The notes below the pieces were generated by a model, which worked only from the letters and a program-made list of their open reading frames with translations, was not told the origin of the DNA and searched no databases. A stretch of DNA of 64,000 nt from Dictyostelium discoideum (taxonomy: Eukaryota). The stretch is taken from positions 2,592,001 to 2,656,000 of the forward strand of contig CM000155.2 in NCBI GenBank assembly GCA_000004695.1, read 5' to 3'. Below are positions 9,903 to 33,733 of this stretch, piece by piece; the stretch's first letter is position 1; each line of letters starts with the position of its first letter. Both the position numbers and the translations under genes were made by a program.

Positions 9903-10132
9903 TAAAAATGATTAATTAATCAGTTTTTTAAAAAAATTCATATAGGATTATTTGTTTTTATTAAATTAATTTTATTTTTTTATTGTAAAACCTTTCTTGG
10001 ACTCTATTTATTTCGATAATTACCACCAGAATTTTTTTTTTGTTTTTTTATTATTATTATAAATTTTTGGTTATTTCATCAAAAAAATTTTTAAAGATCG
10101 TTTTGCGGTAAAAAAAATTTATTTTCATCAAA

Positions 10133-10163
10133 CCGGCTTTGGCGCAATGGTAGCGCGATTGAG
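10133..10163 (+). pseudogene. tRNA-Tyr 5'-half relic (A-box region only)
   Basis: 39/39 identity to the 8-bp leader plus the first 31 nt of the tRNA-Tyr at 5198-5279 (TCATCAAACCGGCTTTGGCGCAATGGTAGCGCGATTGA). It diverges at the anticodon loop. No T arm or 3' half follows within 300 bp. Confidence 0.6.
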
Positions 10164-10477
10164 GACTCGACAATTTAAATATGTAATAATTAAATAAATA
10201 AATATTAAATATTAAATTATTATTATATAAAATAAATATTTAAATAAATATTTAAAATAAATTAAATTAAATAAAATTCGAGTCCTTCCACTTCCATTAC
10301 ATTAATTTGTAAATATTAAAAATGATTTCAAAAAATTTAGAGCAAAAGAAGAAGAAAAAAAAAAAAATTATTAACTACTAATTTTATAAGTAAAATATTT
10401 AAATAAAATGAAATGCAAATGCAAGTATTTCTAATTATTTTAATTATTTTAATTATTTTAATTATTTATTATTAGTA

Positions 10478-10909
10478 TTAATTAAAAATTAATTGTGATT
10501 TCATAATATTATGTAAATGATTTTTCTTTACACAATTGATAGATTCTTTTAATTCTTTAATCCAATCTTCTTTATCAGCTTCAGTTGTACTAATTACCAT
10601 ACCATTTTCACTTTTATCTCCACTCCAATTAATTTGAAAACAATATAAACCAGTCTCTGTATTATTTGCAGATTGTGGAACTTCTAAAACCTTTAAATCA
10701 ATCAATGGTATAGTTTTATAAATACTATATTTGTTTTTCTTTTGTTTAGTAATAAATAATAAATCATTAAATAATATGAAATATCTATATTTTGAAACTT
10801 TCTTTTGTCTACTTTCCATCATTAATCCATCTTTAATTAATTGTCTATTAATTATATTTAAATTTGTTGTTGTTGTTGTTGTTACATTATTTGAACTACT
10901 TGTATTTAA

Positions 10910-10968
<59 letters not shown>

Positions 10969-11854
10969 TATTATTATTATTACTCATATTTAAACCATTA
11001 TTATTAATACTTGAATTTAAACTAATATTATTATTATTAATACTTGTATTTAAACTATTATTATTATTATTACTACTACTACCATTTATATAAATTATAC
11101 TATTACTACTACCATGATGACTACTACCAGCACTATTACTACTACCACTATTAATTATAGCATTTTCTTTATTTGCATAAATATTTGGAGAGAATAATAT
11201 TTCAGATAAACCTATAACCTTTTCTTGAAGTAATAAAGTTTTTGAAACATTTTCAGCTTTTCTCTTTGATTCATTTAATTGATCAGTGATTTGTTTTGTT
11301 CTTTTTAGGACATCTTGAATTGCAACTCTTTCCAAAGTATCAACTGTATGATTTAATAGATCAGTTAAGAGTAGAATGTAACGTGGTACTCTTTGAACGG
11401 GTCTAATTAAATAACTATCGATTGTTTCACTTTTACATTGTTCAGAGAATTGACATTTCTCTAGAAACTCTTTAAATTTTGGTAATTTTGCACGATTTTC
11501 ATGTACACAATCCATTGCTTTATTGAAATTGTTAATATAGGTACGAAGTTCTTCAATGGTATCTTTTTGATCCCAATACCATTGTAAACAATGAGCCAAC
11601 TCTAATACATCCTTCTTGTCTGACATTCCTCTTAACTTTTTTAAGAATTCACAACTAACTCTAAATACTTTATCAATATTTGAAAATATTGTCTCTACTA
11701 AATCTAAACTTATAATTGGTGGTATAGTTGGTGATACTACTAATGGATTATAATAGACTTTAATACAAACTGATAATGCATGTATATAAACTTGTTCTGT
11801 ATCAATTAATTCTTTAATAATTCTACCTCTTCTAAATAATTTATTTGGTTCATC

Positions 11855-11916
<62 letters not shown>

Positions 11917-12156
11917 GAGCTTGAAATTGTGGTTGTTCTTCAATAATATTTTGTTGTATTGTTTGTGATTGAATTTGTGGTGATTGTATTTGTTGTTGTT
12001 GTGCTTGTTGTTGTGCTTGTAATTGTGGTGTTGTTTGTGATTTAATTTGTGGTGATTGTTGTTCAATAGATAAGGATGGTAAATTATTAATTTGTTGGTG
12101 TTGTTGTACTACTTGTGGTGATTGTTGTGGTGATTGTAATGGAGTATTAATATAGA

Positions 12157-12224
<68 letters not shown>

Positions 12225-13710
12225 GGTGGTGGTGGTAATTGAGGTTGTGATTGATATATTGGTGATTGAAGTAAACTACTTGCACTATTACTTGTACTAT
12301 TATTAATACTATTTGATTTACTATTACTATTAGATGAATCAATAGAATTTGTTAAATTATTATTATTATTTGGTGGTGAAGTACTTTTTGAAAAACGAAA
12401 TATTGAACCTCTAAAACCAGGTGAATTGAGAGTATTTTGATTTGAACAAGTTGTTTGAAAACTTAAACTATCGAAAGGATCTAAATCAGACATATCCTCT
12501 ATCATTGCTAATTCATTTTGAGTTTCAAAAGAGATTGGTACTTTAATATTATCCAATGCATTTAAAATTGAATCTCTAACTTGACCATGTGGATAATTTA
12601 TTAACTCTATCAAATCACGGCCACAATCTGATTGAGAGATTTTAAATCTACAATGTTCATCAATGCATAGATTGGCAATGAGTAATGATATCGCCTCCAA
12701 TAGTTGACTTGTATGATTGGGTTTATCTTTTAACAATTCCGATAACCCATCGATGAGATAATTTGATCTCAACACTTTTCTAATATCAGCATTTGATGTT
12801 AAATTGGCTAAACAACTCACACACAATGATTTCAACTCTATCGTAGTGGAACTTATCGATACGACAATATCAACCAATGGCATGATCGCACCCGCTTGTA
12901 ATATTGGTCGTTCAGTTTCTTCGGTCAATGAAAGGTTGATTAGGATCTTTATGGTTTGCTCCTTGATTGGAAGAGGCGTTGAAGGGGATGATAGCAGGGT
13001 AACCAATTGGTTCAATATGCCTGATATGGCTAGAATCCTACGGATTAGGGGATGGTAGATGGTCAAAACATGTATCAACCCAATCAAGGACAATATCATC
13101 TGATTGGACGCCTGCTGCTCTCGTTGGGATGTCCTGTTAGTGGTGGCTATTAACATTTGATTTATAGTTTGAATGATACCTGAATGACAAAATATCTTTT
13201 GATTATCTAAATATTCTCCACATGAATCTTTATGTAATAAATTCCTAAGTATACCACATGATAATATAACCATACTATAATTATTACTCTTTCTCTTTAA
13301 AAACTCAATCAATATTTCAACTATACCATATTCTAATAATAAATGAGAATTATCATAATTCAATGTAATATTTAACATTAACCATAATACCTTTTCCGTT
13401 ATATCTTCATTCTCTCTTTCACTTTCTTTTAATAATTTTATTATAATTTCAATTAAATCCCATTTTAATATAATTTCACTATTTTCATCTATATATATAT
13501 ATATAATTTATTTTTTAAATTTTAAATTAATTATTTATTTATTATTATTTTATAATTATAATAATTATAATAACAAACATTTTAAACCTAAATGACTTAA
13601 TAACCAAGCTGAAAGCATTTGAATAACTTCATTATTTGATTGTATTAATTCTTTAAACCTTTTACTTCCAACTAATTTTAAAATTATATTATGATATTCA
13701 TCTATAATTT

Positions 13711-21201: not shown

Positions 21202-24005
21202 TAATAATAATAATAGTAGTGTTAGTGGTGGTAATGGATATCAAACATTAATATCATCAACATTATCAACATGTAAAACAACAACAACAACAACAACAAT
21301 AACAACAATAAATAGTAATAATATGACAAATAATAATAATAATAATAAATTACCACCACCACCAGTACCAAAAAGGTCTGATTTACAAAGTCAACAAGAA
21401 TCACCACCACCATCACCACAACTTCCACCACCACCACTACCACCATCACCACAACAAATTCCATCACCACCATCACCACCAACATTATCAATTCAAATTA
21501 AATCAAATGTTTATGATATTATAAATGAAATTAAAGAGTGGTTAAAATTAAATTTTAATATTGAAATTACAAATCAATATAAGATGATGTTATTACAATC
21601 AAGACAATTAAAATTATGGTTAATTGATAGTAAACCATTAAATTCTTATCATATTAGAAAGAATGATTCATTATATTTATTTCCAAAGATAACAGAAGAA
21701 GTTAATCTTGATGAAGGAATTTGTTTAAAAGTTAGATTCTCTGCATGTAATGTTGTAAATGATGTAAATAGTAGTAATACAAATAGTAGATTAACTACAA
21801 AAACTTTACCTGGTGAAGTATTAATTTTAAAAATTGAAAATGTTGTAATGTTAAATATAGTTTCAAGAAAACCATTATTTGGTGATATTTATATGACAAA
21901 TTTTCAATTAATTTTTATAACTAGAGAAGCTGTATGTATTATTATAGTTATAATATTAAATATATTAAATAAATATTAATATATAATTTTTATAGAATAA
22001 AGAATATAATATTCATTTAGGAGTAATTTCAAAAATTGATAAAGTTTCAAATAAATCAAAACAAACATTTTGTTTTTTAGATTTACATTGTAAAGATTTT
22101 AGATTTATTAGATTAGTATTTGTTTCTAAAGATAAATCTAGAAAGAAATTATATTTAACATTAAAACATCAATGTTTTCCTGGTATTCAAACTAAACTAT
22201 TTTCATTTTATAATAAAGAAGTATTTTATTATAAACAAAATAATATAAAAATTGGTGGTGGTGGTGGTGGTGGTGATTGTTTTATTAGTAAAATTGGTGA
22301 TAAAATTAATGGTTGGTTAATTTATAATTCAGAGAGAGAATATAAGAGAATGAATATTAAAGCTGGAAGTGGTTGGAGAATTTCAACAATTAATAATGAT
22401 TTTAAAAAGTGTGAGAGTTATCCAAAATTAATAGTTGTACCTGAAACAATCACTGATACTCAATTGGTTGATGTTTTCATATTTAGATCAAAAGGTCGTA
22501 TCCCTGTATTATCTTGGAAACATCCTTCAAATGGTACAACAATTACAAGATGTTCACAACCTTTAGTTGGTTTAACTGGTAGTAGATGTATTGATGATGA
22601 ATTATTAATTAAACAAATTTCATCACCAACAATAATTCAACAACCACAATCACAACAACAATCTTCATCACCTCCACCTTCATTTATTAATTATTCATCA
22701 ACAACATCAACAAACTCAACACCAAATTTAAATCAAATTAATAATATTAATGATAATTTTAAAAGTTTAAATAATTCAGGAAACAGTATAGTTTTTAATA
22801 AAAGGCAATCATACATTTCAAATTCATTATCAAATTTAGAATCATCATTAGTTAGTAATAATAATAATAATAATAGTAATATTAATAATAATAATAATAA
22901 TAATAATGTTGAAAAAATATTAAATTTATTAGATGCTAGACCAAAAGTTAATGCAATGAGTAATAAAGCATTTATGGGAGCAGGATTTGAAAATGTTTCA
23001 ACATTTTATTCATGTTGTAATATAGATTTCTTAAATATAGGTAATATTCATGTAATGCGTGATTCTTATGAAAAATTAAAATCAACTTGTATAGATTCAC
23101 TTGGTGGTATTAAAGAAATTAAAAATAGTAATAATACAAATCAAGATAATAATAATAATAATTTTAATTTAAATAATAGTAATAGTAATAATAATAATAA
23201 TAATACAAATGTAAATAGTGATAATAATAATAATAATAATATTGTAAGAAGTGAAAGTGAAGAAGAATTAAGTAGTTTTTTATTAGAGAATGAAACACCA
23301 ATTAGTAGTATTCATAGTAGTGATATAATTGATAATAATGAAGGATATAATGGTACAAATATTAAATGGTTTGAAGGTATTGAATCATCTAGATGGTTTG
23401 ATCATATTATTTTAATATTAAAAGGTTCAATTAGAATCGTTGAATCAATTCATAAACAATGTACATCTGTATTAATTCATTGTAGTGATGGTTGGGATAG
23501 AACACCTCAGCTATCCTCTATATCAATGATTATGTTAGACCCATACTATAGAACATTGGAGGGTTTCATTGTGTTGATTGAAAAGGAATGGTTGGAATTT
23601 GGTCATAAATTTAATGATCGTATTGGTCAGGGTGATTCAAAACATCTAGATGAAAGGTCACCTGTATTCGTTCAATTCATTGAATGCGTGTATCATATAA
23701 TGGAGCAATTTAAAAATTATTTCGAATTCAATAGTCAAGTCCTTGTTGAAATATTAGTTAATGGTTTATATTCAAATAGGTTCGGTACATTTTTATATAA
23801 TACTGTAAGAGAAAGAGAAATCAATAAAGTACAATTGGAAACTGCTTCAATTTGGTCTTTAATCTTATCAAATTACTCTTTTTATATTAATCAAAACTAT
23901 ACAAGAATGGATAAAGTTTTAATACCTTCAATTGCAATACCATATTTTAGTCTTTGGAAAGATTATTATTTAAAATATTTATTATCAACAACTTCAATAA
24001 ATTAA
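20161..24005 (+). CDS. myotubularin-related phosphoinositide 3-phosphatase (GRAM + PTP domains), ~1170 aa
   Basis: Active site VLIHCSDGWDRT (CX5R). GRAM motif GDIYMTNFQLIF. Signature SGWRISTINNDFKKCESYPKLIVVP. Model: join(20161..20292?, 20537..21931, 21996..24005). The 64-nt intron GTATGT..TATAG is firm and in frame. The track's M at 20543 is TTG, so the ATG exon at 20161 (donor GTATCT, acceptor AAAG at 20536) is tentative. Confidence 0.8.
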
Positions 24006-24109
24006 TAAATTAATAAATTAATAATTAAATAAATAATAATAGTTAATAATAAAAAATTAAAATTAAAATATGTGGTATTATAAATAATTTATTAAATAAT
24101 TTCCTTTTT

Positions 24110-24141
<32 letters not shown>

Positions 24142-24497
24142 TTTTTTTTCTTTATATATTATAATATATTCCAGCTAAGATTCCTTTATTTCCTAAATGT
24201 ATATTACCAATTATAGTTTGATGACGAAAATCAACATCAAGGTCTGAACATTTTAAATTATTATTATAAAAATTATTTTCATTTTTAAATTTATTAATTT
24301 GGTGTGTTTTTGAAATTTTATTTAAACTTATATTAATTATTGAATCTAATAAATTTTTAAAATTAGTTATAATTATTAAAAAAAAAAAATTAAATTAAAT
24401 TAAAAAAGTACTTACTAATCATTGTCATTTTATTATAAATCTTTTTTTTTTTTAAAGTTTTTTTTTAAATAAATAAATTAATTAATAAATTAAAAAA

Positions 24498-24539
<42 letters not shown>

Positions 24540-25514
24540 TTAGTATAATTAATTTTTAAGTAATGATTTTTTTATTTTTTTTTTTTTTATTTAAATATTT
24601 TTTTTTTTTTCAAAATTTATATATGAAATGAAATTTAAACACAATTAAAAAATAAAATAGAAAAAATACTATTATTACCTTTTTAAATAACTTATTATTT
24701 TCTTTGATTAATAGTAGTTTTGGTTTTGAAAGGGTGTGTGAAATATTGGTTTAAGTGTGTGTGTGTGTGTGGTGGTAGATCTATATGAATGGGGGGTAAT
24801 TGTAAATATTATTTTAAAAATTTATTTTTATCATTATCCTATTTAAATTTTAATTATCTAAATAAAAAAAGACACTTACACACACTATATAAAGGGTTTC
24901 TAAAAATAACTTTTTTTTTTTTTTTTTTTTAATTTTTTAAAAAAAAAAAAAAAAAATTTGTTGTTCATACCCAAAAAATTGAGAGAAAAAAATGGGAATT
25001 TTTTAATAAAATTTTTTAAATTTTTAAAAAAATTTTTTTAAACAAAAAAAAAAACTTAAATTTTTTAAAATAAAAAAAAAAAAATATAATTAATCATGGG
25101 TATTTAAAATTATTAAAGAAATTTTTTAATTTTTTTAATTTTTTTTTGGGGAAGGTTTGAAGAAAATTAAATTGTTGGCATGTTAATTCCCTAAATGTTT
25201 ATTACTACTTCATAATGTAGAGATTTATATTTTAACTTTAAGAAAAATAATTTTTTTTTTTTTTTTTTCAAACCTGATACCTTAAATTTCAAGAATTCAA
25301 AAAAGTTAATTATTTAACAGACATATCCCAGATTAATTTTTAAAAAATAAAATCTTTTTAAATTTCTTTTTTTTTTTTTTTTTTTTTTGATTAAATATTT
25401 TTTATTTTTTTTCCTTTTTTTTTTTCATTTTTTTTTTTTTTTTTTTTTTTTTTCTAAATTTTTTTTTATTTTTATAATTTTTTTTATTTTTTCATTTTTA
25501 AACTCTGATGAACA

Positions 25515-27683
25515 ATGGAATCGAAAATCAAATCTATTAAGAAAAAGATTGAAGAATCTAATCATTTTCAAATTCAAAGAGAATCAGTACTATTAATATA
25601 TCAATTATTACAAAATGAAAAATCAACACAAATATTTGATTCAAGTGTAATTTTATTCCTTCAATTAATTTATAATCCAAATACCCATGTTATCGAAACA
25701 ACCATCGAATGTGTAAGTAAATTATTATAATAATTATAAAAATATATTTTAATTTCTCAAAAAATAAAAACCAAACATCTACAATCAACCAACCATCTAC
25801 CCACCCACACAAATATGTGCAAAAAAAAAAAAAAAAAAAATTATATTATATTTTATTCATATATATGAATCTAACATATTTTTTTATTATTATAATTATT
25901 TTTATTTTAAAATTTTTTTTTTTTTTTTTAGATTATAAATTTAATTAAAGATAAAAAATTAAATAGAGAATTTGTATTGAATAAATTGATTGAATCTATA
26001 TCATCATTAGAGAGAGGAAATGTTGGAATAATTGTAAAAGTTATTATATTATTATCAATTGATATTGAATATATGTCAAAGATAATTAAAGAAACCAATA
26101 ATAAAGGATACTCAATATTTCCATTAAACACATTAACTAAACAACATGCACTTAGTAAACCTGAAATTTATGATTCATTCTCTATGGAGATTGAAGAATT
26201 ATTAAGTGATTCAAATATACCATCATCATTATTAGATCAAAGATTCGAATTTTTAAAACCTTTAGTTTCAAATTTATTATTAAATATTAATGAATTACCA
26301 TTAGAAACCTCATTATTACATAATAGTTTAATAAGAATAGCTCATAATATTTCAACATTATATCAACCAATTTTATCACATTTATCATCATTATTATATC
26401 TTTATAATAATAATAATAATAATAAAAATAATAAAAATAATAATGGTTCATATCAAAAAATTCAATATATTAGAGATTTAATTGATTTAATTAGATTCCC
26501 ACCACAATCATCAAATCAACTAAATCAATGTAATGAATTTCAGAAATCAATTTTATCAATAATTTATTATTTAATGAATGTTTTTATTAGTGGTTTTAAT
26601 GAAAAAGAGATATCAATTAGAAATATGGCATTAACTCAAATTCAAGATTTAATTGAATTATCACCAATTTCAACTACATTACTTTGGAATCAATCATCAT
26701 TGAATAGTAGTAGTCAAAATTTAAATACACCTGTATTGGTGGTTTTATTATTATACTTGCCATCATCATTGGTTTGTTTTCAAAAAAAGATTTTAAATAT
26801 TTTACAATCATCAATTGAATCATTATCATCAATTGATTTAAAACAAATTTTAAAATCTTCAGATAGTAATAAACAAGTTATATTACATACATTAAGATTA
26901 TCACTTTCACCAATAATTAGAATCATTTCAAATTTTAATCAACAACAACAACAACAAGAACAAGAACAACAATTACAAAATGAAAATTTAAAAAAACTAT
27001 TAAAACAAATTGAAACTTTAATTTTTACAATTTCAACAAATATTGAAAGAAATCAAGAAATCAATTCAAATCAAGATATTGATGATGAAGATATTGAAGA
27101 ATTAATTTTTAATCAATCATTACCAACATTAGATATTTATTTATTAGATAATTTTATACCAATTAATTTAGCATGGAATTTATTAATGATGAATAATAAT
27201 GATAGTAGTAGTAGAAGTAGTAATGGTGGTGATGGTGGTGATTATTTAAAATATGAAATTATACCAAGTTGGTTAGAAATTATTAAATTTAATATACTAA
27301 ATCAAAAAGAAATTATTGAAGAACAAGAAGAAGAAGAAAAAGAAAAAGAAAAAGAAAGAAAATCTTTAATTAATAAAAGTAATATTAATTTTTCAAATGA
27401 ATTTTTAATTTACTTTTTATCACCATTTTTATTTTATAAATTTAATCAACAAAATGAAATTGCAAGTGAAATTAGAATAAAAACAATTCATTTATTACCA
27501 TCAATTTGTAGAAATTCAATTGAATCAATTTCATTGATACCATTATTCTTTTTTTCAATTCAAAGAGAAGAATCTTCAAATGTAATCTTAGATTTATTAC
27601 AATCATTACCAGATTTAGCAAATAATAAAGAATGTTTAAATTCTGTTGTTAAAGTTTTATCAATTTTAGAACAACAAACAAAG

Positions 27684-32307: not shown

Positions 32308-32320
32308 GGGAATCGAACCT
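32308..32320 (-). promoter_or_regulatory. external B box for tRNA-Ala copy 1
   Basis: Minus strand GGTTCGATTCCC lies ~31 bp downstream of the tRNA 3' end. The internal T-loop (GGGATCGATACC) is a degenerate B box. Confidence 0.6.
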
Positions 32321-33721: not shown

Positions 33722-33733
33722 AGAATCGAACCT
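33722..33733 (-). promoter_or_regulatory. external B box for tRNA-Ala copy 2
   Basis: Minus strand AGGTTCGATTC. Same spacing as copy 1. Confidence 0.55.

Follow-up and report, generated by a model that had tools for sequence, protein, structure and literature searches.

Truncation at the 5′ or 3′ end is a known fate of tRNA genes, and the truncated copies are low scoring and probably nonfunctional (tRNAscan-SE 2.0 paper, PMC8450103). In Dictyostelium discoideum, the tRNA pseudogenes called by tRNAscan-SE are reported for Ser-TGA, Leu-TAA, and one undetermined anticodon (PMC13063481), and intact tRNA genes often lie in nearby pairs with the same anticodon (PMC8163159). The promoter motifs in this species follow the consensus TRRYNNARYNG for the A box and GTTCRANNC for the B box, and transcription is efficient with an A–B box spacing of 30–60 bp (PMC5391098). 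Loci with A and B boxes outside the tRNA context are also transcribed and, on the rDNA element, targeted by TRE5-A (PMC5391098).

We analyzed a stretch of 64,000 nucleotides from chromosome 6 of D. discoideum AX4 (hereafter, the window; 22.5% GC overall) and found the first 30 nucleotides of a tRNA-Tyr(GTA) gene that break off abruptly. The stub is a new instance of a known feature type. Like other truncated tRNA pseudogenes, it is a fragment of a true tRNA gene in its native context, forms no cloverleaf, and is overlooked by standard tRNA finders; it differs from them in being 100% identical to the intact gene, in retaining the full upstream promoter architecture, and in carrying a 9-bp repeat at the breakpoint. 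A stub of 30 nt is unlikely to be among tRNAscan-SE calls, and both ARAGORN and the Rfam tRNA model miss it.

The relic sits within a 575-bp intergenic gap separating two convergent genes. The left neighbor is on the + strand, where a 69-aa ORF (9693–9902, stop at 9902) exactly matches DDB_G0293268 of D. discoideum AX4, and the right neighbor is a RhoGEF/PH/Arm gene on the – strand (ORF 10478–13378). The product of DDB_G0293268 is Cys-rich and has a signal peptide; its paralogues DDB_G0293324 (87%) and DDB_G0292970 (76%) are on the same chromosome, and the database searched contained no homologues outside D. discoideum. Locus L001 of another D. discoideum assembly, GCA_054883475.1, is 99.6–99.7% identical over the relic region and contains the relic and the associated inverted repeat unaltered; across 10 kb, it differs from the window by 2 SNPs and by the lengths of homopolymers and microsatellites. 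Elsewhere, between 22857–27111 of the window and 18021–22247 of L001, the identity of the assemblies falls from 99.6 to 98.1%, with 50 mismatches over 4.3 kb and alignments whose coordinates overlap; this suggests a repeat or a structural difference. Apart from this nearly identical assembly, homology searches for related loci returned only distant dictyostelids or paralogues, and a metagenome scan for a 22-nt piece of the 5′ half found no match.

Searching the window by BLAST with the intact tRNA-Tyr locus as query gave a single exact match of 39 bp, at 10124–10162 on the + strand. It consists of the 9-nt leader TTCATCAAA at –9 to –1 (10124–10132), the same as that of the intact gene, and of gene nucleotides 1–30 (10133–10162), which agree at 30/30 sites with 5279–5250 on the – strand and cover the D arm and the 5′ strands of the acceptor and anticodon stems. 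At 10140–10150, the A box TGGCGCAATGG fits the species consensus TRRYNNARYNG (PMC5391098), and a TATA-like element, GCGGTAAAAAAAA, is found in the 5′ flank at 10105–10117. Leader identity by itself says little because the motif is a generic 5′ box of the tRNA genes of this genome: a TCATCAAA-like leader occupies –9 to –1 in Tyr, Ala1, Ala2, and Leu, and Thr has a weak version only. With a GC content of 60%, the stub stands out from the surrounding DNA (2–20%).

At the junction, the stub ends in GCGCGATTGA and is followed by GGACTCGACAAT. On the cloverleaf of the intact gene, the last matched base is canonical position 31, placing the break at the boundary between the anticodon stem and loop and 6 nt 5′ of the intron site. 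The sequence-only reading of the locus had described the leader and the first 31 nt as identical to tRNA-Tyr, A box included, and the break as falling exactly at the anticodon-loop/intron position. The identity holds over the 39 bp, while the gene part counts 30 nt, 31 being the canonical number of the last base; the break is upstream of the intron position. We confirmed the relic in the place where it had been reported and far beyond chance expectation, with several of the figures corrected.

ARAGORN and Rfam agreed on five tRNA genes in the window, none of them at the relic. The intact paralogue, a tRNA-Tyr(GTA) gene with an 11-nt intron, is at 5197–5279 on the – strand (ARAGORN and Rfam, 57.8 bits); the intron follows canonical position 37, and after its removal ARAGORN reports tRNA-Tyr(gta) with a standard cloverleaf. 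The Tyr, Thr, Ala1, and Ala2 genes have an external B box (GGTTCGATTC-like) ~28–30 bp past the gene end; the sites recorded for the leader and external B box were 5159–5167, 32310–32318, and 33723–33731 as well as the tRNA 5′ flanks. Ala1 and Ala2, two copies of Ala(AGC), have both flanks in common between about –70 and +45, and they are an internal control for what an intact duplicate retains, including the external B box ~30 bp downstream.

The intact tRNA-Tyr gene and the relic are oriented head-to-head, 4.85 kb apart, and their 5′ flanks are homologous. In these respects they resemble the Ala(AGC) pair and the pattern of same-anticodon pairs described for the species (PMC8163159), with the difference that the relic member is truncated and has lost its 3′ flank and external B box.

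The surroundings of the intact tRNA genes contain several retroelement sequences. Downstream of tRNA-Tyr, a TRE3-like non-LTR retrotransposon occupies 1–5160 on the – strand with its 5′ end toward the gene. Its ORF1 (3773–4981, 402 aa) is DDB_G0293270, whose cluster at 90% identity contains the D. discoideum "gag" (AAD43056.1) and several other AX4 copies and therefore represents a multicopy family; ORF2 runs from 3776 and leaves the window at its start, and there is an N gap near 2700–2800. At the tRNA-Thr gene (6517–6588, – strand), the external B box GGTTCAATTCTTTA is doubled beyond the gene, with copies at 6427–6440 and 6474–6487 that read TAAAGAATTGAACC on the + strand and are separated only by aacaccgcttttaggt and A17. 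The segment 6427–6487 looks like the product of a non-LTR retrotransposon that was extremely 5′-truncated and inserted right at the external B box, duplicating 14 bp of the target site. Upstream of tRNA-Thr, at a distance of ~50 bp, a further 3′ fragment of a retroelement (6640–6735) is ~95 bp long and ends in A22; the segment 6117–6180 contains a similar sequence, gaatggga.agaacaagaa.gataatagaaaaac.actacgtcaagaa.taagatgca.

To compare the upstream regions, we excluded the leader and evaluated GC-weighted local alignments against shuffled sequences. From –11 to about –67, the relic and the intact tRNA-Tyr gene aligned with a score of 23 (shuffle mean 10.0, SD 1.8) and roughly 75% identity, and none of 1,000 shuffles (0/300 in another set) reached this score (P < 0.001). 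Scores for the Thr, Ala1, Ala2, and Leu flanks in the same test were 8–12, none of them significant, and no homology was found between the relic and the intact gene beyond about –67. The region 10066–10123 (+), corresponding to about –67 to –10, is thus the native tRNA-Tyr flank of the relic. As the flank is specific to tRNA-Tyr, the stub was once a genuine gene copy in this place, and it is an in situ paralogue with its own promoter region. A chance match to an A box is excluded by the Tyr-specific homology. A retrocopy of a 5′ fragment of the pre-tRNA or a template-switch chimera was rejected as well, since the homology reaches to about –67, upstream of any plausible transcription start.

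In the intact gene, the 5′ flank is interrupted by a poly(A)-containing retroelement insert of 725 bp (5325–6049, + strand) that is flanked by a 13-bp target-site duplication, CGTTCGTTAATAA, at 5312–5324 and 6050–6062. Its position, target-site duplication, and poly(A) suggest a TRE5-like family. With the insert taken out, the flank alignment continues through its insertion point, and the relic thus shows the empty site (~48 bp upstream). Relative to the intact tRNA-Tyr gene, the CGTTCGTTAATAA-flanked insert is 33–45 bp upstream; the segment 5312–6062 consists of one or more GC-rich (43–46%) retroelement fragments, with A34 at 5913–5946 and a second A-rich end. Upstream of the relic, TTTCATCAAA occurs twice, at 10074–10083 and 10123–10132, 49 bp apart. 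The distal copy has its aligned counterpart in TCTTCATAA of the intact flank and is therefore ancestral; the pair is not a target-site duplication.

On the other side of the break, nothing of the gene was found. In the BLAST comparison with the intact locus, no part of the tRNA-Tyr 3′ half (GATCAATCGGTTGCTAGTTCGAATCTGGCAAGCCGGA) had a match on either strand of the 64 kb, and the acceptor partner AAGCCGG is absent from the same 64 kb. A matching 3′ half that forms a valid cloverleaf across a long intron had been named in advance as the observation that would overturn the relic interpretation. ARAGORN, run with default and relaxed thresholds and introns of up to 3,000 nt, recovered the intact gene as a control and found no cloverleaf at the relic; likewise, an Rfam scan of 9500–10700 at E ≤ 10 gave no match to any family, RF00005 included. 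The 3′ side of the relic showed no significant similarity to the native 3′ flank and external B box of the intact gene (P = 0.38), and the sequence past the right arm of the inverted repeat resembles neither the remainder of the gene nor its 3′ flank. When the downstream 238 nt were compared with the window and with TRE contigs using BLAST, only low-complexity AT noise of ~60% identity was returned. The lost portion comprises the anticodon loop and intron, the B-box-bearing 3′ half, the T-run terminator, and the native 3′ flank together with the external B box.

Two candidate continuations of the gene were rejected. Under a simple deletion, the best local match of the downstream sequence (10168–10195 against 5104–5077, 22/28 identical) begins 5 nt past the break and is not significant (P = 0.14). 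We regard the match as spurious; it lies inside the 5′ UTR of the TRE3-like element in a region common to another copy of the element (L004). The B-box-like motif ATTCGAGTC (10276–10284), considered as an orthologous external B box, is surrounded by flanks that are not similar to those of the intact gene (P = 0.38).

The bases following the stub belong to a perfect 9-bp inverted repeat on the + strand. The left arm, AGGACTCGA (10162–10170), starts at the breakpoint, and the right arm, TCGAGTCCT (10278–10286), lies within a 20-nt GC island, TTCGAGTCCTTCCACTTCCA (10277–10296), at the start of which the B-box-like motif is found. The first A of the left arm doubles as the last tRNA-matched base, and the remaining 8 bases, GGACTCGA, are junction filler. 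The spacer between the arms (10171–10277, 107 nt) is a degenerate, microsatellite-like array of AATA/TAAAT that contains only 2 G/C bases and is 98% A+T. An earlier description of the structure as an 8-bp repeat enclosing 116 bp of AT-rich DNA is borne out for the repeat and the composition, with the arms amended to 9 bp and the spacer to 107 nt, 116 being the start-to-start offset of the arms.

The inverted repeat is nonrandom: among 9-mers of the 64 kb that contain GC and are not of low complexity, no other has a reverse complement less than 250 bp away, and an expectation of 0.27 such pairs per 64-kb window was obtained from composition-preserving local shuffling. No further copies of either arm were found within the window, and no target-site duplication was found around the inverted-repeat unit. 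Neither a longer repeat reaching into the D arm (AATGGTAG vs. AATGGAAG; P ~0.09) nor a long degenerate palindrome in the spacer (P ~0.10–0.15) was significant. We also considered the GC island as the segment of another tRNA from the T loop to the 3′ end; its length of 20 nt fits, but neither a matching T-stem 5′ strand nor an acceptor partner is nearby, and this reading was rejected.

We consider it probable that the relic is a truncated tRNA-Tyr(GTA) pseudogene: of the partner that the intact gene once had, a 5′ stump is left, its break sealed by repair. The match is exact at 39/39 sites and then ends abruptly, and it is preceded by native flank homology from –11 to about –67, as expected of such a pseudogene; the complete cloverleaf of a functional tRNA gene is lacking, with only nt 1–30 present. 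In the proposed sequence of events, a second, once-functional tRNA-Tyr(GTA) gene would have been paired with the intact gene 4.85 kb away, and a deletion or rearrangement would have taken away everything 3′ of the anticodon stem, leaving ~67 bp of the upstream promoter region, the leader, and gene nt 1–30 with the A box. The break would then have been closed with the addition of the 8 bases GGACTCGA, which together with the last tRNA base match, in exact reverse complement, a 9-mer found 107 nt downstream. The filler may thus have been copied from nearby DNA in inverted orientation, through snap-back or templated synthesis during end joining. Templated (snap-back) fillers are known from polymerase-theta-type end joining. 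The relic resembles such insertions in having a short junction filler that is an exact reverse complement of neighboring DNA, while the template is here 107 nt off, across a repeat tract, and the likeness is one of geometry. Given that the left arm starts at the breakpoint and that its 8 bases outside the tRNA form the reverse complement of DNA close by, we infer that the inverted repeat is a footprint of repair and not a functional hairpin.

The stub and the flank differ in their degree of conservation. Had the stub drifted since the duplication as fast as the flank (~75% identity), the probability of its being identical at 30/30 sites would be 0.75^30, or ~2e-4. The difference would mean that the copy remained an intact gene for most of the period after the duplication and that the truncation is comparatively recent; the latter, relative to the duplication, is the simplest reading of the two identity levels. 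The perfect conservation of the stub could equally reflect selection or constraint, or gene conversion.

The earlier suggestion of a disrupted gene is upheld by the native, Tyr-specific 5′ flank (P < 0.001), though not as an insertion at the intron site, given a break 6 nt upstream of that site, the lack of any 3′ half in the 64 kb, and the unrelated sequence past the right arm. A 5′-truncated TRE3-type non-LTR retrotransposon could have integrated downstream of the gene with a target-site deletion that consumed the 3′ half and the 3′ flank; 10163–10354 would then be the 3′ end of the element and the A13 run at 10355–10367, on the tRNA strand and ~200 nt past the break, its poly(A) tail. The orientation would be that of the TRE3-like element beyond the intact gene, with the 5′ end toward the tRNA, the window is rich in short, poly(A)-ended fragments with target-site duplications beside tRNA genes, and 5′-truncated TRE5-A copies with target-site deletions have been reported (PMC3159450). 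We nevertheless find this origin unlikely, as the 107-nt tract is 98% A+T and microsatellite-like, whereas the retroelement pieces of the window have 30–46% GC; the sequence has no specific similarity to the retroelement fragments of the window or to the TRE3 contigs from Logan (L002–L005), and the inverted repeat is left unexplained. The inverted repeat would be accounted for by a MITE-like DNA element of ~125 bp, inserted at the stem/loop boundary with 9-bp terminal inverted repeats, and a later loss of the downstream part of the gene: the repeat is perfect, contains GC, encloses a short stretch of AT-rich DNA, and begins right where the gene breaks off. Such an element is highly improbable here, having no target-site duplication, arms that recur nowhere in the 64 kb, and a body that is a generic microsatellite-like tract; moreover, the gene does not resume after the right arm, which calls for a second, independent deletion. 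In Nanoarchaeum, split tRNA genes have a 5′ half followed directly by GC-containing sequence with a complementary partner, and the layout of the relic shows some likeness to that arrangement. A split, long-intron, or trans-spliced tRNA-Tyr, the 5′ trailer of which would pair before a distant 3′ half, has a negligible probability in our view: what comes after the complementary 9-mer is TCCACTTCCA instead of a tRNA-Tyr 3′ half, which neither strand of the 64 kb contains; ARAGORN finds nothing with introns up to 3 kb; the break position gives neither a bulge–helix–bulge nor the canonical 37/38 intron; and the intact tRNA-Tyr 4.85 kb away makes a split gene unneeded. Inside the 64-kb window, where no split gene of the archaeal type was found, this reading is close to refuted.

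A different kind of alternative concerns the present activity of the locus. With its TATA-like box, leader, and A box and the B-like ATTCGAGTC, the stub could still be a working Pol III/TFIIIC element that either produces a transcript of ~250 nt, from 10133 to the first T4 at 10382 and with the 9-bp GC stem, or acts as an extra-TFIIIC (ETC)-type site or TRE landing pad between the convergent genes. The contrast between a stub conserved at 30/30 sites and a flank at ~75%, the match of the A box to the species consensus, the 249 nt without a T4 on the + strand, and the fold of the 168-nt RNA (z = –3.1) could all be read in its favor, as could the transcription and TRE5-A targeting of A/B-box loci outside tRNA genes (PMC5391098). 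Like those loci and ETC sites, the relic combines an A box with a B-like motif outside a functional tRNA; the difference is that the B box of an ETC site is strong by definition, whereas ATTCGAGTC is off consensus and no TRE has integrated. No GTTCRANNC is found at the relic, and ATTCGAGTC deviates from it at the first base, an invariant G, and is ~125 nt beyond the A box against the optimum of 30–60 bp. A functional B box is needed for TRE5-A targeting, and a B box that is solo or poor counts as a <1% target (PMC5391098). The first T4 downstream is at a distance of 249 nt, which we rejected as a sign of a Pol III unit because T4-free stretches of this length are ordinary (P = 0.12; nearby gaps measure 247–280 nt); the z-score of the fold comes almost wholly from the 9-bp stem, and no Rfam family matches. 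A TRE is absent from the expected upstream position, although this is weak evidence as only ~24% of tRNA genes carry TRE5-A (PMC5391098). Lacking a consensus B box, the stub should bind TFIIIC poorly and is probably inactive; by its motifs, Pol III or TFIIIC activity is unlikely, and we regard the working element as quite unlikely. That the half-gene is being maintained, with the A-box stub, the TFIIIB-region flank, and the degenerate B-like box nucleating a Pol III/TFIIIC complex, appears to us very unlikely. The sequence-only reading had proposed a Pol III promoter relic and a decoy for TRE elements: the former is apt as a description, the TATA-like element, leader, and A box being in place, with predicted activity unlikely, and the latter found no support, the site ~48 bp upstream being empty in the relic and occupied in the intact paralogue.

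Under the preferred reading of a truncated pseudogene, the stub amounts to a decayed copy within one of the tRNA pairs for which this genome is known, and its significance is small. The relic nevertheless offers a natural empty-site control for the retroelement insert upstream of the intact tRNA-Tyr gene, and it forms a natural A-box-only construct, on which one may ask if recruitment takes place without a B box. If templated repair is the true origin of the 9-bp inverted filler, the junction would provide a small piece of evidence on end joining in D. discoideum. If the half-gene was maintained after all, the consequence would be an RNA of ~250 nt headed by a tRNA 5′ half or, alternatively, a site that separates DDB_G0293268 from the RhoGEF gene as a chromatin boundary or lies between them as a TRE landing pad. 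For the tRNA gene complement of the species, the relic indicates that D. discoideum tRNA copies can disappear by internal breakage, besides decay through point mutations.
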